Source of the DNA: Carcharhinus amblyrhynchos
Lineage: Eukaryota
Assembly (NCBI GenBank): GCA_965287045.1
Contig: OZ336892.1
Coordinates: 19,034,001-19,098,000, forward strand
Direction: 5' to 3'
DNA: 64,000 nt
Below are positions 2,925 to 61,409 of the stretch, piece after piece. The number at the start of each line of letters is the position of its first letter. Positions within the stretch are counted from its first letter, which is position 1. Below the pieces are notes generated by a model. The model worked only from the letters and a program-made list of their open reading frames with translations. It ran no database searches and was not told the origin of the DNA. Made by a program: the position numbers and the translations under genes.

Positions 2925-3145
2925 TTTAAAAACACAAAAAGCTGGATAATCTCAGCAGGTCTGACAGCATCTGTGGAGAGAGAATGGAGCCAACGTTTCA
3001 AGTCTGGATGACCCTTTGTCAGAGCTGAATCCAGCCTCAAATCATTGACTCTATTCTCTCTCCATAGATGCCATCAGACCTGCTGAGATTTTCCAGCATT
3101 TTCAGTTTTTGTTTCAGATTCCAGCATCCACGATATTGTTTTGCA
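2925..3145. mobile_element. Palindromic Penelope-derived element, second family
   Basis: Inverted arms ATCTCAGCAGGTCTGA..GCATCT.TGGAGAGAGAAT; central minus-strand CTGACAA...GAAACGTT hammerhead-like motif. Confidence 0.65.
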
Positions 3146-5214: not shown

Positions 5215-5368
5215 AAGTCTCACAACACCAGGTTAAAGTCCAACAGGTTTATTTGGTACCAAAGGCTATCAAGAGGCATTTACTACCAAGTAAACCTGTT
5301 GGACTTTAACCTGGTGTTGTGAGACTTCTTACTGTGTTTACCCCAGTCCAATGCCAGCATCTCCAATC
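5215..5368. mobile_element. Palindromic Penelope-derived element (inverted terminal repeats)
   Basis: About 44-bp near-perfect inverted arms (5215-5258 and 5283-5326) of the same family as 28350 and 42170. Confidence 0.7.
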
Positions 5369-21479: not shown

Positions 21480-21715
21480 CTATCTGGAATTAGGAATCTA
21501 CTGATGACCATGGAGCCATTGTCGATTGTCAGAAAAACCCATCTGATTCACTAACGTCCTTTGGAGAAGGAAATTTGCTGTCCTTACCTGGTCTGGCCTA
21601 CATGTGACTCCAGGGCCACAGCAATGTAGTTGACTCTCAATTGCTCTCTAAACAAGGGCAATTAGGGATGGACAATAAATGCTGGCCAGCCAGCAATACC
21701 CATGTCCCAAGAAAT
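21480..21715 (+). mobile_element. SINE family 2, 5'-truncated
   Basis: Same body and tail as 1197-1550. Confidence 0.85.
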
Positions 21716-24192: not shown

Positions 24193-26129
24193 GTATATCA
24201 TTACTGGAACACTACATGAAACACCACTGCCCTGGCAAACATCACTCTGCCACCTATCTACTGACTTGCAACAACACACAAAATGATAGAAAAAGTTCAC
24301 AGTGCCTCCCCTACTTGCCAATCTATTCGGCCCACCCAAGGTAAAGTCTGATTTTGAAAATTCCTCCTACAGAGGGCTTCAACGCAAATTCCGCCTGGAC
24401 AAATGAATGAAAATCATTGGACATGACAAGCAAGTACCTGATTTCAAACCCAACGGCTACCTGGTTTCAACCTTCCAAGGAAAGTGTGGACCACCCTCAA
24501 CGGGTTCAGAACCAGCCATGGCTCCTGCCTGGCCGACCTCCATAGACGGGGCATTAGTACCAGCCCCCTATGTGCCTGCGGGAAAGAGCAAGCTATACAC
24601 CACAGCATTGAAGAATGTTACTGAAATGTACAGTTGTACGGTACCCAGCCCTGTGTCAGACAAACGGTTGTCACATTAAGATAAGTCTCTAGTTTCCTCA
24701 AACCTTCTCCTTGTCCTCATCATCAGTCGGGCAATCTCTAGGAATCAGGAGGGCCTTATCTCACATACCGGCACTGGTTAGATGGTCATTGACTTACCTC
24801 ATGAACAGGTCAAGATCTCATCTCGCTTAACCTGATAGCAGATCCAAACTGAGGGTCAAACTTCTGAGGGTCAAATGTCCTTCGCTTTCTGGGTATCCTG
24901 TTCCATTTTTTTAAAAAAGCGTTGGAAGGCCCAGGATTTGTTTTTTGGCAATTCTTGGCCAGTCATATTCTGAGTCACCACATCCAAACCAGTACGTAGT
25001 GAACATTATCCCCATGGGATCCCTGTTAGGAATGACTCACTGTGGTTTAGACCACCACATGCCCTCAAGCAGAGGGCTGATGCCCTCAACACCATCCCAA
25101 TGAAAGGTAGGAGGAAACTTTAACACAACCTCCAGTTTAGTTATCGCCTGGACGCGTCAGGGAAATGTACAGAATCAAAGAGTCCTACAGTGCAGAAGGA
25201 GGCTATTTGGCCCATCAAGACTGCTCCAACCATAATCCCACCCAGGCCCTACCCCCATAACCCCATGCATTTACACTAGCTAGTCCCCTCGACACTTAGG
25301 GACAATTTAACATGGCTAATCAACTAATCTGCACATCTTTGGACAGTGGATGAAACTGGCACACCCGGAGGAAACCCACACGGGCACGGAGAATGTACAA
25401 ACCCCACACAGACGGTGACCCAAGCTGGGAATGTCTGCCAAGACTCCTGTGGTGGGTGGGACAGGAAAATTCCTCCTGTAGTTATCCCACTATTCACTTC
25501 TCAACCACCACCACCACCACTCAATACCCAGAGTGATGCTCCTGGGGGGAATCAGCTGGGCAGGAAGGTGGAGGGGATGTGCCATCCACTGTGTTACAGA
25601 TCTCATGCAAAGATCCACAGAGCTACTGTAACCAGAGCCCATAGTTACCTCTGTGCAGAGTGTTTCCCCTCTCCTGCATTTCACTCACAGTGATCCCAAA
25701 AGGAGTTTGCCACCCGTATCCATCACCATTAGCAAGGCGCACAGATACTGGCCACACAAAATGTTGCAAAGTGGCAATTTCTGAAGGGAGATATCTGGGA
25801 GGGGAAAAAAAAGGTGCTTCCACCCTTTTCTTTGTCGAACTCGTTGTGAGTTCTCATTCTTTCAAGTTAACAACATCGTCCGATGCGAAAGGCAAGCGAC
25901 GCAGCTTGTTAAGAAGCAACAGGGGGCTTTGAGAATACCGTACAGAAGGGAGAGCTATTCAATCCCCTGAACTGCCTGCAGGCCTTAAATGTGACTCAGC
26001 ATCAACTGGGCTCTGCACGAACTCCGGTTAACAGCGAAAACGCCCATTCATTCAAGGGCAACCTGAGTGAGCAAGACAGCAATTGCGGGGGGGCGGTGGG
26101 GAAGAGGCTTGCACAGACACAGGCATCTT

Positions 26130-26149
26130 TACACACACACACACACACA
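26130..26149 (+). repeat. (AC)n microsatellite at the start of BLMH intron 1
   Basis: Direct reading. Confidence 0.9.
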
Positions 26150-26247
26150 TAGGAACTGCAACTGGAAATCCAAGTGACACAAAAGGACGGCTCAGCACAG
26201 TCCCTCCCAACAGAGCGAGGTTGCACAAAGGGAGGGAAGCTCCTTAC

Positions 26248-26257
26248 CCGCTGTCAT
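26248..26257 (-). CDS. BLMH: Bleomycin hydrolase coding exon 1 (ATG ACA GCG G: M-T-A-G)
   Basis: agaATG followed by G|GTAAGG donor in phase 1, matching exon 2. Sits in the CpG-rich region. Vertebrate BLMH exon 1 likewise encodes only a few residues. Confidence 0.8.
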
Positions 26258-26370
26258 TCTGTAGCCGGGAGGGTGGGGAGAACAAAAAAAGTTGCCTTCT
26301 TCTGGATGATCTGCAACTTTTAAATAATTCGCCAGGAGTCACGAAGGGCTGCAGCGTCTTAAAGGAAGCA

Positions 26371-26391
26371 CCGGAAACAGGAAACCGAAAC
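26371..26391 (+). promoter_or_regulatory. ETS plus ISRE/ETS-IRF composite motif CCGGAAACAGGAAACCGAAAC
   Basis: Contains CCGGAA (ETS) and GGAAACCGAAAC (reverse complement GTTTCGGTTTCC, ISRE core), about 115-135 bp upstream of the BLMH ATG. Confidence 0.5.
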
Positions 26392-26937
26392 AAGTTGAGG
26401 CAGCAGAGAGACCAGCCTGGGATGTGTCAGGAGCGGACAGTCTGTGTGTGGCTGCAGCAGCGACCGGGCAATTTCACTGCAATCCCAGGACCACCTCCCA
26501 CGCCTCTTCCTGGAGCCCCGGGGCTATCTGATTGCTTGGTTTAAATGACAAAGATTAAAAATAACCCACATTCTCTTCTCTGCCAGACACTGGCAGCAGG
26601 GTGCATTACACTGAGGGCTGCATGTACGTGTATTGCCTGCCCGGAGATAGGAAGAAACCTTCACTATTCCGGGATGTTTTAACACAATAAACATCCCCCC
26701 AGACACCTATTACCATGTCGACAAAAAAAAACAAACTTTTTTAAACATATAGGTTTCACAACCGTATCTTAATGCCTAATGAAGGAAATTCCCATACATA
26801 GGTAGGGCAGAAGATGCTACTTTCAAATCACAGTTTCAAATAACTTTTCCACGCATCCTTGCCATTTCCTCGCCTAGACAGGGTGTCCAACCAGTGTGCA
26901 TTTCTTCTCTGCCACTCATTAATAGCACAATGTCTCG

Positions 26938-27427
26938 TATAGAATCATTACAGTGGGGTGCAGTGCAGAAGGAGACCATTTGGCCCATCGAGTATGCACA
27001 GACCACAATCCCACCCAAGTCCTATTCCCATAACCTGTCTTATTTACTCTGCTAATCCACCTGACATCAAAGGGCAATTTATAGAGTCATAGAGGTTTAC
27101 AGCATGGGAACAGACCCTTCGGCCCAGTTTGTCCATGCTGCCCTTTTTTAAACCCCTAAACTAGTTCCAATTGCCCGCATTTGGCCCATATCCCTCTATA
27201 TGCATCTCACCCATGTAGCTGTCGAAAGGCTTTTTAAAAGACAAAATAGAGCTTGGCCAATCAACCTAACCGGCACAGCTTTGGACTGTGGGAGGAAACC
27301 AGAGCACCTGGAGGAAACCCAGGCAGACAACATGCAAACTCCACACAGACTGTGGCCCAAGGCCAGAATTGAACTCGGGTCACTGGCGCTGTGAAGCAGC
27401 AGTGCTGACCACTGTGTCACCATGCCA
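26938..27427 (-). mobile_element. HE1 tail-A copy interrupted by a short CR1 3' end (about 27081-27245)
   Basis: SINE sequence stops at GGGCAATTTA and resumes at AGCTTGGCCAATCAACC. Confidence 0.8.
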
Positions 27428-27854
27428 CTTTATGCCTTAACTATTCTCAATCCCAGCTCCGGGTTGAAGAGCAATTGGAGGGAGGAGGCACAATTAATTT
27501 GTGATCATAATTCAGGGAGGAAAAGGATACAGCTTTTACTGCTCTAGTTCTGGCCTGAAGTATGTATGAATAGGCCAACGTCAAGATGAAGGCTGCAAAT
27601 CCTCAGGGTAAGATGAAGCCCAAGATGGGGTGCAATGCCTTTTCTTGTAGCTTGGATCTTGTGGCCACTCTTGTGGGGACCATGAATTAGATTCATTTGG
27701 AATTTGAATTTGGTTTTTGGAGCAAGCAAGGAATGGATTTGGGTTTACCCGGTCCTTTCTGAACATTCGCTTTGTAACCTAAGGATGGTGTTTCTTTTTT
27801 TAATCCTCAAATGGCCACATAATTCAGGGAAATATTACCAATCACACACCACAG

Positions 27855-28113
27855 ATATATTCCCTTCCACTGTCTTCCGTTGGGAAGAGATACAAATGCC
27901 TGAGGTCCGGTACCAACTGACTCAAGGATAGCTTCTTCCCTGCTGCCACCAGTCTTTTGAATGGTATTAAGTTAATCTTTCTCCACACCCCAGCTATGAC
28001 TGTAACAGTACATTCTACACCCTCTCCTTTCCTTCACTATGTACGACATGCAAGAAAGAATACTTTTCACTGTATACAAATACATGTGTCAATAATAAAT
28101 CAAATCAAATCAA
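27855..28113 (+). mobile_element. Rex1/Babar-clade LINE 3' end
   Basis: LP.GRRYKCLRSGTN.LKDSFFPAATSLLN C-terminal motif, 3' stem-loop, AATAAA and (ATCAA)n tail. Confidence 0.7.
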
Positions 28114-28349
28114 AAACAATGCTCACATCTCATGAAAGAATTAAAACAAAATCCAGTATTTTCTGTTGGAAGCCATTTAGATAGGTTTTGGTATTAGCAG
28201 CAGCAATTATATTGTATGTATTTATAAGTTAATGGCTAAAGCTAGCCTAGGGAGAATAAATATCATGATTTAAGACATATGTAGAAATAACACAGCATGA
28301 GGGAGAAAGAAGCTACCATGTGTTGTTATATGCTCTGCCTGAGGCCAGA

Positions 28350-28450
28350 ACTCTCCATTCACCTGACGAAGGGGCAAACCCCGAAAGCTTGTGAGTTTAC
28401 TATCAAATAAATTGGTTGGACTTTAACCTGGTGTTGTGAGATTTCTTACA
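28350..28450 (+). mobile_element. Penelope-like element terminal-repeat fragment
   Basis: Hammerhead motif followed by AAATAAA..GTTGGACTTTAACCTGGTGTTGTGAG, also found at 5290-5325 and 42325-42355. Confidence 0.65.
28357..28396 (+). ncRNA. Minimal type-I hammerhead ribozyme motif (Penelope-like element type)
   Basis: ATTCAC-CTGACGA-A-GGGG(CAAA)CCCC-GAA-AGCT-T-GTGAGT: stem I pairs 6/6, both core boxes intact, palindromic AGCT in place of stem III. Confidence 0.7.
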
Positions 28451-28729
28451 GGGTTTTTTAAATCACAGGAACATGCCCATGCTCGCTGCTTCAGTGATTT
28501 TCTCTCTGCAACCTTCAGCCTCTGACTCAGTTTTTGTAAAGATATTAACCTGCTTTACAGCAGCACTGGGCACTTGTGAAGTTAGTCACTGAAAAAAACC
28601 TTAAACACGTAACAAAGGAATTTTGCATACAGCTTCCTTATTCTACAGTTGCACAAACCTAGTTCATGGTTCATGTTTCAACTATCTGTCTTTTCGTGCA
28701 ACATGTAATTTTAAGGAATTAAAGTTTAA

Positions 28730-30076
28730 TTGTAGAAGATGGGATCAATACAATTAAAGTAGCTCAGGGTCTATTAAACTCAAAAGATTGAGGCCATGTT
28801 GCTTTAAGCGGTTAGCGGCTAGAAGATCACAAAACAGTAAGTGGGCTAACTTAGCTGGAGAACTGGAGATGTGATGTCTTCATTACTTGAGAAGCGGCAC
28901 AGTCCATTGAGGTGATTTCGTTTGGGACTTAGATTAGAGCCAAAATGGTTTAAAAGCATTTGGTAAATTTTGAATAGTTGTAAAATCCATTTAGTTTAGC
29001 TTTTTAAAAAGTAACTTGTAAATAAGGGATAATTAAATTAAAGGCCTGTTTGAGGATAGCCCAGACAAACTAATTCATCATGGAGTGGAATTTAGGAAGG
29101 CTCTCTGGTTCAGTTTATCTGGGTGTTGGCAGGAAGAGCTCTTCAGTTGCAATTTGGACCTTGTGTGGTTTGAAGCTCATTGAGAGAATTTAGTCAAAAT
29201 AAATGACAATTATACACACCTGCACTGTAAGTAAGGTAAGCATTTACTCTGACCATGAGGAGGGCAGGTGAGGCTTAATCTCAGTTCAAATTTTGTGAGT
29301 GCCTAGTTAACATAGTGGGGGAATCGACAATGGGACTCACAATGTCTTATTGCAAAAGGAAATAACTAGTGGAAGTCTTGAAAAGTTACTAGAACAAGAC
29401 CTTCACAGTCATGAGATGGCAAATGAAAGTTTTTACCTCTGAGACTATCTTGTGCTGAAGGACATTCTCCTGAGGACTGTTTCATATTTAAGTATGGTCC
29501 CTACAGAAGTAAATAACTTTAATAATGAAGTGTCGTGTAAGAGAATTCTCAGAGTGGGAAGTAGTGGGGTGGCACAGTGGCACGGTGGTTAGCACTGCTA
29601 CCTCACAGCTCCAGGGTCCTGGGTTCAATTGCCGGCTTGAGTCACTGTCTGTGTGGAGTTTGCACATTCTCCCTGTGTCTGCATGCGTTTCCTCCCACAG
29701 TCCAAAGATGCATGGGTTAGGTTGATTGGCCATGCTAAATTGCCCCTTAGTGTCCCAGGATGCATAGGTAGGAGGAATTAGCATGGCCAATATGTGGGGT
29801 TACAGTGTAGGGCTTGGAGAGGATTGTTGTTGGTGCAGACTTGATGGGCTGAATGGCCTCCTTCAGCATTGTAGGGTTTTTATGATTCTAGACCTGAGTG
29901 CATAACATATAGAGTTATAAATCAAATTGTTAAGTTATTAGTGCTTGATTTGTTTAAGTCTTTTATATGCAACTAAGTATGTTTTCTTTAAAAAGTGGTA
30001 ACATCTTGTGGCATAGTTCTGTTGGTTAAAACGAGGTATTTTTGTAACTGGTAACGGGCTTATCCAGATCTTAACA
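28730..30076 (+). mobile_element. Possible solo LTR with a nested HE1 (29565-29890)
   Basis: Starts TGT and ends GATCTTAACA; similar style to 34.1-35.6 kb, which ends GATCATAACA. No internal gag/pol seen; left boundary uncertain. Confidence 0.35.
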
Positions 30077-30469: not shown

Positions 30470-30822
30470 TTTTCTTATTCATTTGTGGGACATGGGTGCA
30501 GCTGGCTGGCCAGCATTTATTGCCCATCCCAAGTTACCTGAGGGCAGTTGAGTGTCAACCACATTGCTGCAGTTCTGGAGTTTCATGTAGGCCAGTCCAG
30601 GTAAGGACAATAGATTTCCTTCCCTAAAGGACATTAGTGAACCAGATGGGCTTTTCCGACAAATGGTTTCATGGTCATCAGTAGATCTTTAATTCCAGAT
30701 TTTTTTATTGAATTCAAATTCCACCATCTGCCATGGTGGGATTTGAACCCAGCTCCCCAGAACATTAGCTGAGTCTCTGGATTAATAGCCAAGCGATAAT
30801 ACTACCAGGATGTTGCCTTTCC
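30470..30822 (-). mobile_element. SINE family 2, full length
   Basis: Same as 1197-1550. Confidence 0.85.
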
Positions 30823-42169: not shown

Positions 42170-42372
42170 ATGATGTGGAGATGCTGGCATCAGACTGGGG
42201 TGGGCATAGTAAGAGGTCTGAGAACACCAGGTTAAAGTCCAACAGGTTTATTTGCAATCACGAGCTTTTGCTGTGCTACTCTTTCATCAGGTGAGCCAAA
42301 AGTTCCAAAAGCTCATGATTCGAAATAAACCTGTTGGACTTTAACCTGGTGTTATAAAACTTCTTACTGTCT
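42170..42372. mobile_element. Palindromic Penelope-derived element with degenerate hammerhead
   Basis: Inverted arms AACACCAGGTTAAAGTCCAACAGGTTTATTT; minus-strand CTGATGA...AAAAGCTCGTGA. Confidence 0.7.
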
Positions 42373-44191: not shown

Positions 44192-44732
44192 GGGGGAAGT
44201 GATGGCTTAGTGATATTATCGCCAGATTATTAAGCCAGAAACTCATCTAGCGTTCTGGTGGTCCAGGTTCAAATCCCACCATGGCAGCTGGTGAAATTTG
44301 AATTTAATAAAATTCAATTAAGAATCTACCGATGGCCGTGAAACCATTGTTGATTCCTGAAATTAACTAATGGGACAGGTGACAGCCTAGTGGTATTATC
44401 ACTAGACAATTAGTCCAGAAACTCAGCCAATGTTCTGGGGACCTGGGTTTGAATCCCTGCACAGCAGATGGTGGAATTTGAATTCAACAAAAAAATCTGG
44501 AATTAAGAATCCACTGATGACCTTGAAACCATTGTCGCTTATTGGGAAAAACCCATCTGGTTCACTAACGTCTATTAGGGAAGGAAATCTGCCATCCTTC
44601 CTTGGTCTGGCCTACACGTGACCCCAGAGCCACAACAATGTGGTTGACTCTCAACTGCCCTCAGGAAACTAGGGATGGGCAATAAATGCTGGCCAGCCAG
44701 CAACGCCCATGTCCCACAAATGAAAAAGAAAT
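44192..44732 (+). mobile_element. SINE family 2: partial copy followed by a full copy in tandem
   Basis: Head repeated at 44192 and 44372. Confidence 0.85.
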
Positions 44733-50960: not shown

Positions 50961-51484
50961 TTCTAGTGAAGGTCAGCAACATCTTGTTCATTTAATAAAC
51001 TGCAACTGCCGAAGAAGAGAAACTAGTAGTTTGCCATTAGAACAAATCATTATTTGTCTAGTTTATTTATTAGTGTCACAGGTAAGCTTACATTAACACT
51101 GCAATGAAGTCACTGCAAAAATCCCCTAGCCGCCACACACTGGCACCTGATCGGGTACACTAAGGGGGAATTTAGTATGGCCAATGCACCGAACCAGCAA
51201 GCATCTCAGACTGTGGGAAACTGGAACACCTGGGAAGAAACCCATGCAGACATGGGGAGAATGTGCAGACCTGCACAGACAATGACCCAAGCCAGGAATT
51301 GAACCCGGGTCCTTGGTGCCATGAAGCAGCAGTGTTAACCATTGTGCCACCATGCCACCTATTTGGATTGGAAAAGAACTCATACAATAAAAACACACAA
51401 AAATGGAATACAGAAAAGGAAATATTACATTTGCTCATTTGAGGTTAGCTGTTCATCAGGGTTATGAGGCTTGTTCATTCTTAC

Positions 51485-51769
51485 CTTTCACATTCAGGTG
51501 GAAGGACAGATTGCTGCTTCCAAGTGTAGACTTTGCCATACAGGTGTATGTCCCACTTTCCATCTTCTGTATCTTCCTCATAGATAGTCTAAAAACACTA
51601 CTGTCCCAGTGCACACTGTGTCTGCCGGCCATCATCTTCAAGGTATTGTTATCTTTATACCAGGACATCACAGCTGGTGGGTTCGATTTCACATTACATG
51701 TTAGCGCCACATCATTTCCTGCAAATACTTCTATTTCCTCCTCTCCATCCCTACTCAGAATGGGGATAA
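51485..51769 (-). CDS. TMIGD1: TMIGD1 Ig domain 2 exon (285 nt): IPILSRDG...VALTCNVKSNPPAVMSWYKD...ESGTYTCMAKSTLG...FHLNVK
   Basis: tttttAG acceptor and GTAAG donor, phase 1/1. I-set/C2 Ig motifs CNVKSNP, WYK, GTYTC, FHL.VK. Confidence 0.95.
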
Positions 51770-51937
51770 CTAAAAATTCAAGCATAAAATACTACACATA
51801 ATTATAAAGCTATTTTAAATTGTTACTTTTATGTACTATTTCTAAACATGAACACATTAAAATTGCTGTTCAAATATCACACCGTAGACATACTAAATTC
51901 TTTTCTGAATGTTAAAGATGAAATGTTCACACTCTTC

Positions 51938-53200: not shown

Positions 53201-54249
53201 TGCGCCCAGGTCCAGATATATTTCTTCTCTTTTCTAAGGTTTTATGAGTCCATTTAAATTGAGCTGCCATTAACTTCCTGTACTTGACCCACTCACGCCA
53301 TTTGCCTCTCCTTGTTATAGAATGAATAGCTTACATTTTTATTCCCAGCTGAATCAGGAACATGAGGTGAGTTTTCCCATTCTACCCACTATGGCAAAGG
53401 TCCATTTACCTCAGGTGGGATTTCCTGGTTTCGGGGTGAGAGCAGCCAAAAAATCCCTCCCAAAATACTTCAATCAAAGTTTGCATTCTGTGCTTCCTAT
53501 AATGTGGTGAGAAATTTACCACGAACCTCTCTACCGGCTTTCTGATGTTCTCCACCATTTCTGGGATTTTGGTTGATGTACTTTAAGCGCATGTAAGTAA
53601 TGGGAACATATAATTTCTGCCTGTACAATGTTGCAGCAGTATATCCATAATACTCCTGGCATCACGCCAGTGGCAAAGGAATTGGTGGCTATCTCTCTTT
53701 ACCATCTCAAACCAGCAAAGCATCAATGCCAATGAGGGAGAATTGAAACAAAATTAAACTTTAACCTGCACGATTGATTCTAGGATGAGCAATTTCATAA
53801 GGTAATGCATTATTTTAAAACAGAATTTAATTTCAGAGCAATTCGTTTTGTCACCTTGAGTTAATTGCTGAGATGCTTCAAAGGTTCTAGATTGTTGCTT
53901 GGGTCTATTGAGATGTTCCAAATTGGAAGAGCAGGCACCATCACACTTTGGCCTACCATAGAAACTTGCCTCCCACTTTGGATATGCAATATAGTTTAAG
54001 CTCTCGGTAGGCCCTGGGACCATGAAGTACTGCCATGACCAAAATTTTCAACTTCCCTCAAAAACTCTGGCCAAAATCTATCGGATGATGAAAGCTAATT
54101 TCTACACATGGTCTTACGATTCCATAACTAATACTGTGACTGGGTGAAAACTGAAAACTTTTTGATTTCTTTATTGGTAGTATCTCTTTCCCCAGTAAGT
54201 TCCTTTTAACAATATTGTTTTTTTCCAGTAAGATCAGTAGGTTACTCAC

Positions 54250-54528
54250 ATCTGATGTCCAAGTGCACAGTTACATTAACGTTACCATTTTTCTTTAAAC
54301 TGCAACTGAAGGTAGCATCAGTGTCATCTTCTGTAATTGGATCAACACAAACAGTGCTAATATTAATTTGATTCATAGCCTTCAATTTAATTTGTCTGTC
54401 TCCACGAAGCCAGACTAACTCTTCATCGCAGGTGTTGTTGACTGCTGAGCATGTTAACAAAAGAGAATCGGAGACATTCTTGATGATTCTGTAGTTAGTT
54501 GTGATACCATTGATAGCAAGACTTACAC
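54250..54528 (-). CDS. TMIGD1: TMIGD1 Ig domain 1 exon (279 nt): VSLAING...LLLTCSAVNNTCDEELVWLRGD...INISTVCV...DATFSCSL...VHLDIR
   Basis: AG/GTGAG boundaries, phase 1/1. Ig Cys-Trp-Cys pattern; EELxW and NxSxVCV motifs as in TMIGD1. Confidence 0.93.
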
Positions 54529-54627
54529 CTAGATGAAGAAGAATAGCATTACTTTGCATGCATCTGACAAGAGGATTCAACTTAGGAAGTAATAAGCACA
54601 ATATTTGTATTGTAAATTCCAAACTGT

Positions 54628-54978
54628 GTTTTTTTATTTGTGGGACATGGGCGTCGCTGGCAGGCCAGCATTTATTGCCCATCCCCAGTTGCCCGAGGGC
54701 AGTTAAGAATCAACCACATTGCTATGGCTCTGTAGTCACATGTAGGCCAGACCAGGTAAGGACGGCAGATTTCCTTCCCTAATAGTAATTAGTGAACCAA
54801 ATGAGTTTTTTCTGACAATGGTTTCACGGTCATCAGTAGATTATGAACTCCAACTATTTTTTAATTGAATTCAAATTCAATAATTGCGTGGTGGGATTTG
54901 AACCCTGGTCACCAGAACATTAGCTGAATTTCTAGATTAATAGTCTTGTGATAATACCACTAGGCCATCGCCTTCCCT
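54628..54978 (-). mobile_element. SINE family 2, full length
   Basis: Same as 1197-1550. Confidence 0.85.
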
Positions 54979-61029: not shown

Positions 61030-61275
61030 ATGGCTAAAAAGGCAGAGGGATAACAGATGTGCCAAAGACAAGGCCATTAAGAAGTTGTCATCCACAACAT
61101 TGTGGAGGCTAGTGTCTTTGATACGTATGTGTTGCCCAAGTTCTACGTGAAATTGCATTTCTGTGCCAGCTGTGCTATCCATAGTAAAGTGGTAAGAAAT
61201 TGTTCACGAGAAGTGAGGAGGGACCGAACCCCACCCCCACGTTTCTGGCCAAGTGCTGGACCTTTGAAAAAAAAA
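61030..61275 (+). pseudogene. RPS26: Processed 40S ribosomal protein S26 pseudogene
   Basis: MAKK...[58 protein letters not shown]. Intronless, two frameshifts, two internal deletions, ends in an A-run. Confidence 0.93.
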
Positions 61276-61409
61276 GCTAGGAATAGACATTTGAAAATTA
61301 AGTTGTTCAATTGTTTCACAAAACCAAACTTGATAATTCACTAAAAACCACAAATCTGATTTATTAAATTCTCAGAATAATTTTCAGAATGTATAAGCTT
61401 CCTTTGCGG

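Follow-up and report, generated by a model that had tools for sequence, protein, structure and literature searches.

The window analysed here, a stretch of 64 kb from the genome of Carcharhinus amblyrhynchos, holds on its forward strand a 40-nucleotide motif that an earlier note had read as a minimal hammerhead ribozyme with an intact core, of the type carried by Penelope-like elements (PLEs), and had tied to the promoter of BLMH some 2 kb away. The locus thereby raises the question of whether this motif is truly a hammerhead, from which element it came, and whether it cuts any RNA or serves the neighbouring gene. The letters, the stems, the palindrome and the CUU triplet were all found as that note had read them. 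The + strand from 28357 to 28396 reads, in order, ATTCAC, CTGACGA, A, GGGG CAAA CCCC, GAAA, GCTT and GTGAGT, and is divided into the following parts.

28357..28362, + strand: 5′ strand of stem I, of which the inner CAC alone is kept across subfamilies
28363..28370, + strand: CUGACGA box (C3 to A9), fitting the CUGANGAH consensus, followed by one further A, unpaired, that separates positions 9 and 10.1
28371..28382, + strand: stem II of four G-C pairs with a CAAA loop; pairs 2 to 4 alternate between G-C and A-U in sister subfamilies
28383..28390, + strand: GAAA box (G12 to A15.1), palindromic AGCU replacing stem III, and U17; cut predicted after 28390
28391..28396, + strand: 3′ strand of stem I, placed by sequence, fold and haplotype comparison

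The palindrome AGCT lies at 28386-28389 and the CUU triplet at 28388-28390, and by hammerhead numbering, as given in PMC4209133, cleavage is predicted at 28390/28391. Stem I of the window copy has two G-U pairs among its six. Folded as an isolated 40-mer, the motif forms stems I and II at −12.4 kcal/mol (z −2.26), and 5 of 200 shuffles fold equally well; in genomic contexts of 250-440 nt the fold computation gives probabilities of 0.98-0.99 for stem II and about 0.9 for inner stem I. When 28319-28450 is folded alone, the probability of stem I goes down to 0.14-0.25, and shuffles fold as well as contexts of 81 nt and 132 nt do (z 0.31 and 0.67 for the two contexts). An Rfam search of 27400-29400, which the earlier note had proposed as a check with hammerhead models, gave six matches at E ≤ 10 with no hammerhead family among them, as is expected for a motif without stem III. 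The shuffle-level folds and the silent Rfam search are what a chance fit to a relaxed descriptor would give. However, the full descriptor has a single match in the window, and 300 order-1 Markov resamples of the window give none, which argues that the motif is not there by chance; a looser core-intact pattern has 49,021 matches in the genome against 5 in the control; and the covarying stem II and the location in a pseudo-LTR (pLTR), both described below, are as published for this ribozyme class. The probability of a chance fit is thus virtually nil, and the match counts refute it. Other matches to CTGANGA...GAAA in the window were rejected as hammerheads, as they come without the stems. One such stemless CTGATGA...GAAA string belongs to another dispersed repeat and recurs at 1381-1408, 21501-21535, 30653-30681, 44514-44549 and 54809-54836; its copy near 30470-30820 is presumably a tRNA-derived SINE, judging by how it reads.

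Measured against canonical type-I hammerheads, the window motif fails on both stem III and Rfam score. Measured against minimal hammerheads, it has the whole core, consisting of CUGANGA, the extra nucleotide, the G10.1-C11.1 pair, GAAA and UH, and it combines the lack of stem III with a palindromic 15.1-16.1 (AGCT). It agrees point for point with the consensus printed by Cervera and De la Pena (2014; PMC4209133), which in the available part of that paper comprises CUGANGAH, G10.1-C11.1, GAAA, a palindromic 15.2/16.2, UH, a short stem I and no stem III, although stem II here is short (4 bp) compared with theirs. With every core position intact, flanks that belong to a pLTR and agreement with this consensus, the assignment to Penelope-type minimal type-I hammerheads stands. 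The flanks had been named in the earlier note as a point on which this assignment could fail, and they are those of a PLE pLTR, of which longer copies lead into reverse transcriptase (RT) and endonuclease. The following features delimit the host fragment.

28319..28449, + strand: solo, 5′-truncated pLTR (3′ end) of a Neptune-type PLE, limited by homology to other copies
28327..28331, + strand: weak TATA-like stretch that precedes stem I by 30 nt, suggested by sequence and by the clustering of 5′ ends
28406..28411, + strand: AATAAA inside the pLTR, 16 nt past the predicted cut, which begins the conserved 3′-end motif of the family

Homology to other genomic copies begins at 28319 and stops at 28449, giving a stub of 131 bp. 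By eye, no obvious target site duplication was seen in the flanks of 28319-28449, and the stub has neither an inverted partner nor a tail of 30-40 bp. The nearest relative of the window copy is 97.7% identical to it. In another copy of the family, L006, 127 of the 131 positions are identical and the DNA upstream encodes RT and endonuclease; in longer copies generally, about 220 nt of 3′ sequence lie upstream of the stub homology, followed by the C-terminus of the endonuclease and then by the RT. The 3′ pLTR of the full-length copy L087 agrees at 117 of 131 positions. Several other repeat fragments were seen in the window. At 5215-5339 the same element has left two very short pLTR ends in head-to-head order, both truncated 3′ of the hammerhead and the + copy with a tail, and around 42170-42370 there is an older inverted pair of pLTR ends whose hammerheads have decayed, with G12 lost on both. 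A repeat fragment of about 270 bp with an (AAATC)n tail occupies 27843-28114, shares 73-76% identity with parts of L022, L024 and L028, and is likely a LINE 3′ end.

What the parent element looks like can be read from L087 (G000:C1:1568000-1574700), a young full-length PLE unit. It begins with an inverted copy that holds a 630-aa open RT-EN frame, followed by a pLTR-ORF-pLTR arrangement in which the ORF carries one stop and one frameshift. Hammerheads are found in both direct pLTRs, at 3122 and 6136 and thus 3,014 nt apart, with the RT-EN region between them, and the start codon of the parent element lies about 97 nt after the cut. Pfam recognises RVT_1 in the 630-aa frame (39.4 bits, cut-off 29.6). 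GIY-YIG was missed by Pfam on the whole 630-aa frame and was found (24.4 and 24.9 bits, cut-off 22.6) once the last 146 aa were searched alone; the third Atlas look-alike cluster, in which GIY-YIG is present on 31% of members, agrees with this as a lead. By eye, a C-x4-C-x2-C linker separates RT and nuclease, and two Cys and two later His are present in the nuclease. A search of the PDB with the ORF of the element gave nothing below E 0.98. The marks of an endonuclease-bearing (EN+) PLE are thus found in L087, namely RT plus GIY-YIG at the C-terminus in one ORF, the linker and CCHH motif, direct pLTRs and an inverted 5′ copy, together with tail-like sequence at some ends of the family. Such a tail of 30-40 bp follows 45 of 89 distinct 3′ ends among the matches listed, and the 3′ termini of copies fall at two fixed points, some 60 and some 95 nt downstream of the cut site. 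Several insertions within G000:C1:0-5.4 Mb (e.g., L068, L089 and L113) recur with near-identical flanks, which suggests segmental duplication in the opening part of this contig.

In the available text of Craig et al. (2021; PMC8557442), a CX2-5CxxC linker is a mark of Neptune and Nematis, and the order of RT, linker and C-terminal GIY-YIG given for the Neptune clade is that of our parent element. We therefore regard the parent as a probable Neptune-type EN+ PLE, an assignment that rests on domain order and on a linker that Nematis shares. The family also resembles the Neptune units described there in its partial tandems, in the inverted 5′-truncated copy and in the tail of 30-40 bp on about half of the ends, whereas the window copy differs from them as a solo stub with no tail and no inverted partner. 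A second instructive relative, from a different clade, is the Anolis Poseidon element PAc (Frangieh et al., 2024; PMC11167929), which likewise ends at two fixed 3′ positions past a pLTR hammerhead, one with the tail and one lacking it, and whose main template also appears to be uncut RNA; its start codon lies inside the ribozyme, in contrast to 97 nt after the cut here.

Covariation of the stems across genomic copies, on which the earlier note had let its reading depend, is seen for one stem of the two. The sample consists of 100 matches listed for the core pattern, which reduce to 85 distinct contexts and 57 motif haplotypes; these are related and were all drawn from a single contig, within its first 5.4 Mb, which leaves few independent changes behind the covariation. 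Stem II pairs 2, 3 and 4, which the pattern does not demand, are Watson-Crick in 51, 50 and 45 of the 57 haplotypes, values that none of 5000 shuffles reach, and they split between G-C and A-U as 26/25, 37/13 and 39/6. This covariation argues that the fold is held by selection in the source elements, and it bears nothing on inserted stubs. Stem I is conserved in its inner three pairs, which are nearly invariant (50/57, 52/57 and 49/57), and shows no covariation: its outer pairs are loose and form in 37-45 of 57 with G-U counted, and pairs 1-5 show no excess over shuffles. Of the 85 contexts, 84 have U, A or C at position 17.

Given that the earlier note had singled out this copy for its intact core, we asked how common such copies are in the 2.92-Gb genome of the species itself. 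A similarity search gave at least 41 matches (40 of 750 candidates scored), of which the 40 full-length ones show 94-100% identity, and the 34-nt core of the window copy has 628 exact genomic matches against 0 in the control. From the core-intact count given above, 1.07 matches are expected per 64 kb. With A in place of the catalytic G12, which is the change expected from methyl-CpG decay, the same core pattern finds 17,025 matches against 5 in the control, and a 31-nt pattern of the 3′ end of the family has 69,631 exact matches and 0 in the control. Among the 100 matches listed for this end, 89 are distinct, and by rough regex classes, with at least one end misclassed, 45 are core-intact, 22 mutated and 22 truncated. 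The intact core of the window copy is expected from its identity to the nearest relative and is not special; with about one such core per 60 kb of genome, the distinction drawn in the earlier note falls away.

Whether such a copy could cut would probably depend on a partner or on protein. In the available text of the published studies, single minimal hammerheads did not cleave while dimers and trimers did so at a low level (PMC4209133), and one of nine Xenopus dimers was cleaved (10.64898/2026.07.22.740005). The anole PLE hammerhead cut only with the protein of the element and was dispensable for insertion in vitro; no RNA-seq reads ended at the cut, and reverse transcription started at two internal sites which define the tail (PMC11167929). 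As its core and both stems are intact and fold as predicted in context, the window copy could be competent. It lacks a partner in cis and would be inactive as a monomer: no second core-intact hammerhead was found within the 64-kb window, and the four other pLTR ends there are truncated or decayed. A double-hammerhead dimer is computed at −22.3 kcal/mol, close to the −23.2 kcal/mol of two monomers, so that pairing in trans would still be feasible.

Cleavage of the element RNA before reverse transcription can be looked for in the insertions themselves, and clean 5′ breaks were counted at four positions among 16,383 3′ ends of this subfamily group. There were 80 breaks at the cut, 158 at +3, 19 at −4 and 25 at −8, which become approximately 200, 360, 50 and 100 after a rough correction by the chance that a random flank mismatches (0.40, 0.44, 0.36 and 0.25 in the same order, from the base composition of the window). 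No spike of 5′ truncations at the cut is seen across these four positions and 16,383 ends. The two positions just before the cut show 2-4 times fewer breaks than the cut itself or the position after it, with the −4 count biased by AT-rich targets, and this drop is compatible with a little cleavage in vivo and also with an A-run microhomology bias. The share of insertions derived from RNA cut at the exact site is bounded at roughly 1% in this subfamily group, and the low count at the cut speaks for uncut RNA as the usual template.

Taken together, we consider it very probable that the motif is a minimal type-I hammerhead in the 131-bp truncated end of a PLE, and that this copy is likely a silent passenger whose core has been kept by recent insertion; its silence and lack of conservation are judged from the abundance of the family. 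The life cycle that would produce it can be outlined as follows. The parent element carries the motif in both pLTRs, 3.0 kb apart and about 97 nt before the start codon. In the parent RNA, the two hammerhead copies would pair through AGCU and swapped stem I strands, probably helped by the protein of the element, and by analogy with published PLE work the paired hammerheads would cut after U17 and trim the element RNA. The observed 3′ ends suggest that reverse transcription begins at fixed points about 60 or about 95 nt past the cut site, from where it would mostly read through an uncut ribozyme, and a cDNA of uncut RNA that stopped early would have left the window stub. After insertion, CpG sites such as C11.1/G12 are where copies mainly decay, as the counts indicate, presumably under neutrality, and a stub like that of the window would not cut alone.

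The TATA-like stretch at 28327..28331 is possibly a remnant of the own core promoter of the element, and this opens the reading that the stub keeps a weak promoter and gives short RNAs, from the ribozyme to AATAAA, that pair and cut in trans with RNAs of other copies. Mapping of 5′ ends in 85 deduplicated copies, a small sample in which positions are blurred by stem II length, placed 8 of 85 ends at −6..+6, counted from where stem I begins, with a density of 0.62 per nt, and another 8 of 85 at −25..−7 (0.42 per nt), against 2 of 85 at −50..−26 (0.08 per nt) and 0.08-0.19 per nt overall further up; inside and after the motif the density is 0.30-0.43 per nt. This mild clustering hints weakly that transcription may start close to the first ribozyme base, 30 nt past the TATA-like stretch. 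The inner stem I, common to subfamilies in 49-52 of 57 haplotypes, means that partners in trans would be compatible, and the available text of PMC8557442 places the start site of other PLEs within the pLTRs. However, the same text describes the promoter of Penelope as internal, overlapping the downstream 5′-UTR; the stub has neither a tail nor the ORF start, the TATA match is weak, the clustering comes from few copies at blurred positions, and the heavy CpG decay of the family points to methylation. We regard it as very unlikely that the stub makes such RNAs. A broader form of cutting in trans follows from the one palindrome and the one inner stem I that approximately 49,000 core-intact hammerheads have in common: any transcribed copy, including an upstream RNA of BLMH, could be paired in trans and cut, with the protein as chaperone. 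We hold this to be very unlikely indeed. If it were true, the retroelement would have seeded a genome-wide, sequence-addressed network of RNA cutting, and that network would have left its fossil trace in the 2-4-fold change of truncation frequency seen at the cut.

The neighbourhood of BLMH, which gave the locus its initial appeal, has to be weighed by itself. BLMH is real and lies on the − strand, with Peptidase_C1_2 exons of which exon 2 at 20708-20899 matches PF03051, and its start is given by the following exon.

26248..26257, − strand: first coding exon of BLMH, 10 nt, with the ATG at 26257, joining exon 2 in frame through canonical GT/AG sites

The motif is thus located 2.1 kb upstream of the ATG on the divergent (+) strand, in line with the distance of about 2 kb given earlier, and this orientation together with the intact core would suit a divergent transcript from the BLMH promoter that includes the motif and is ended or destabilised by ribozyme cutting. 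The description of a CpG promoter is overstated, however, since CpG o/e is 0.50 at 26000-26500 (GC 0.54; 0.31 for the window as a whole) and the usual threshold for a CpG island is 0.6. Early poly(A) signals are where divergent transcripts usually terminate, and the + strand has three AATAAA (26686, 28094 and 28255) and two ATTAAA (26554 and 28140) ahead of the motif. From density alone, chance would put an intact copy no further than 2.5 kb away, on one given strand, at about 2% of promoters. Moreover, the window offers no second intact copy for a dimer, and monomers were inactive in PMC4209133. We therefore find it extremely unlikely that cutting here ends or destabilises an upstream transcript, and the tie between hammerhead and BLMH drawn in the earlier note is unsupported, given the low CpG signal, the three intervening AATAAA and the placement expected by chance. 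A Pfam search of the 100 longest of 157 open stretches of at least 62 aa upstream of BLMH gave no + strand gene around the motif, a search that short exons would escape. Pfam also matched two Ig-domain exons upstream of BLMH on the − strand, at 51465-51791 and 54245-54709, which belong to the next gene upstream (51-55 kb), presumably TMIGD1 by human synteny, and a Ribosomal protein S26e match on the + strand at 61081-61341 (model positions 50-102, E 6e-19) that may be an exon or a processed pseudogene. Returning to the silent passenger, the locus is probably a relic of the ordinary kind that plays no part for BLMH.

How much of this is new can be stated by comparison with the literature. Earlier publications already cover the motif class, its pLTR location, its frequent occurrence as solo fragments and the dimer model. 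In the available text of PMC4209133, as here, minimal hammerheads occur in both pLTRs of an element with RT and EN and are found mostly as single motifs from truncated copies. By contrast, no cartilaginous fish appears in Table S1 or Fig. S3 of the paper as available, and the 49,021 matches counted here with one narrow pattern exceed the 4,000 of coelacanth and the 9,000 of Xenopus given there, under descriptors that differ. Non-LTR retrozymes (10.64898/2026.07.22.740005) also carry type-I hammerheads from PLE pLTRs and are reported in one chondrichthyan in the portion available; they form head-to-tail arrays of at least two units, whereas the window copy is single. Retrozyme identity was rejected, the 64-kb window having one descriptor match and no tandem units. 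In the literature consulted, no description of shark minimal hammerheads was found, and the supplements of 10.64898/2026.07.22.740005, which concern one chondrichthyan, may list the family. What is new here is a shark member of the published class of PLE minimal hammerheads, at high copy number.

The locus itself matters little, being one of about 49,000 core-intact copies with nothing to distinguish it. The family matters more for a question raised by the available parts of PMC4209133 and PMC11167929, namely whether PLE minimal hammerheads cut in living cells: it is young, it offers some 70,000 3′ ends that can be counted, its full-length copies include near-intact ones, and it would thus lend statistical power to truncation mapping and to cyclic-phosphate RNA sequencing.
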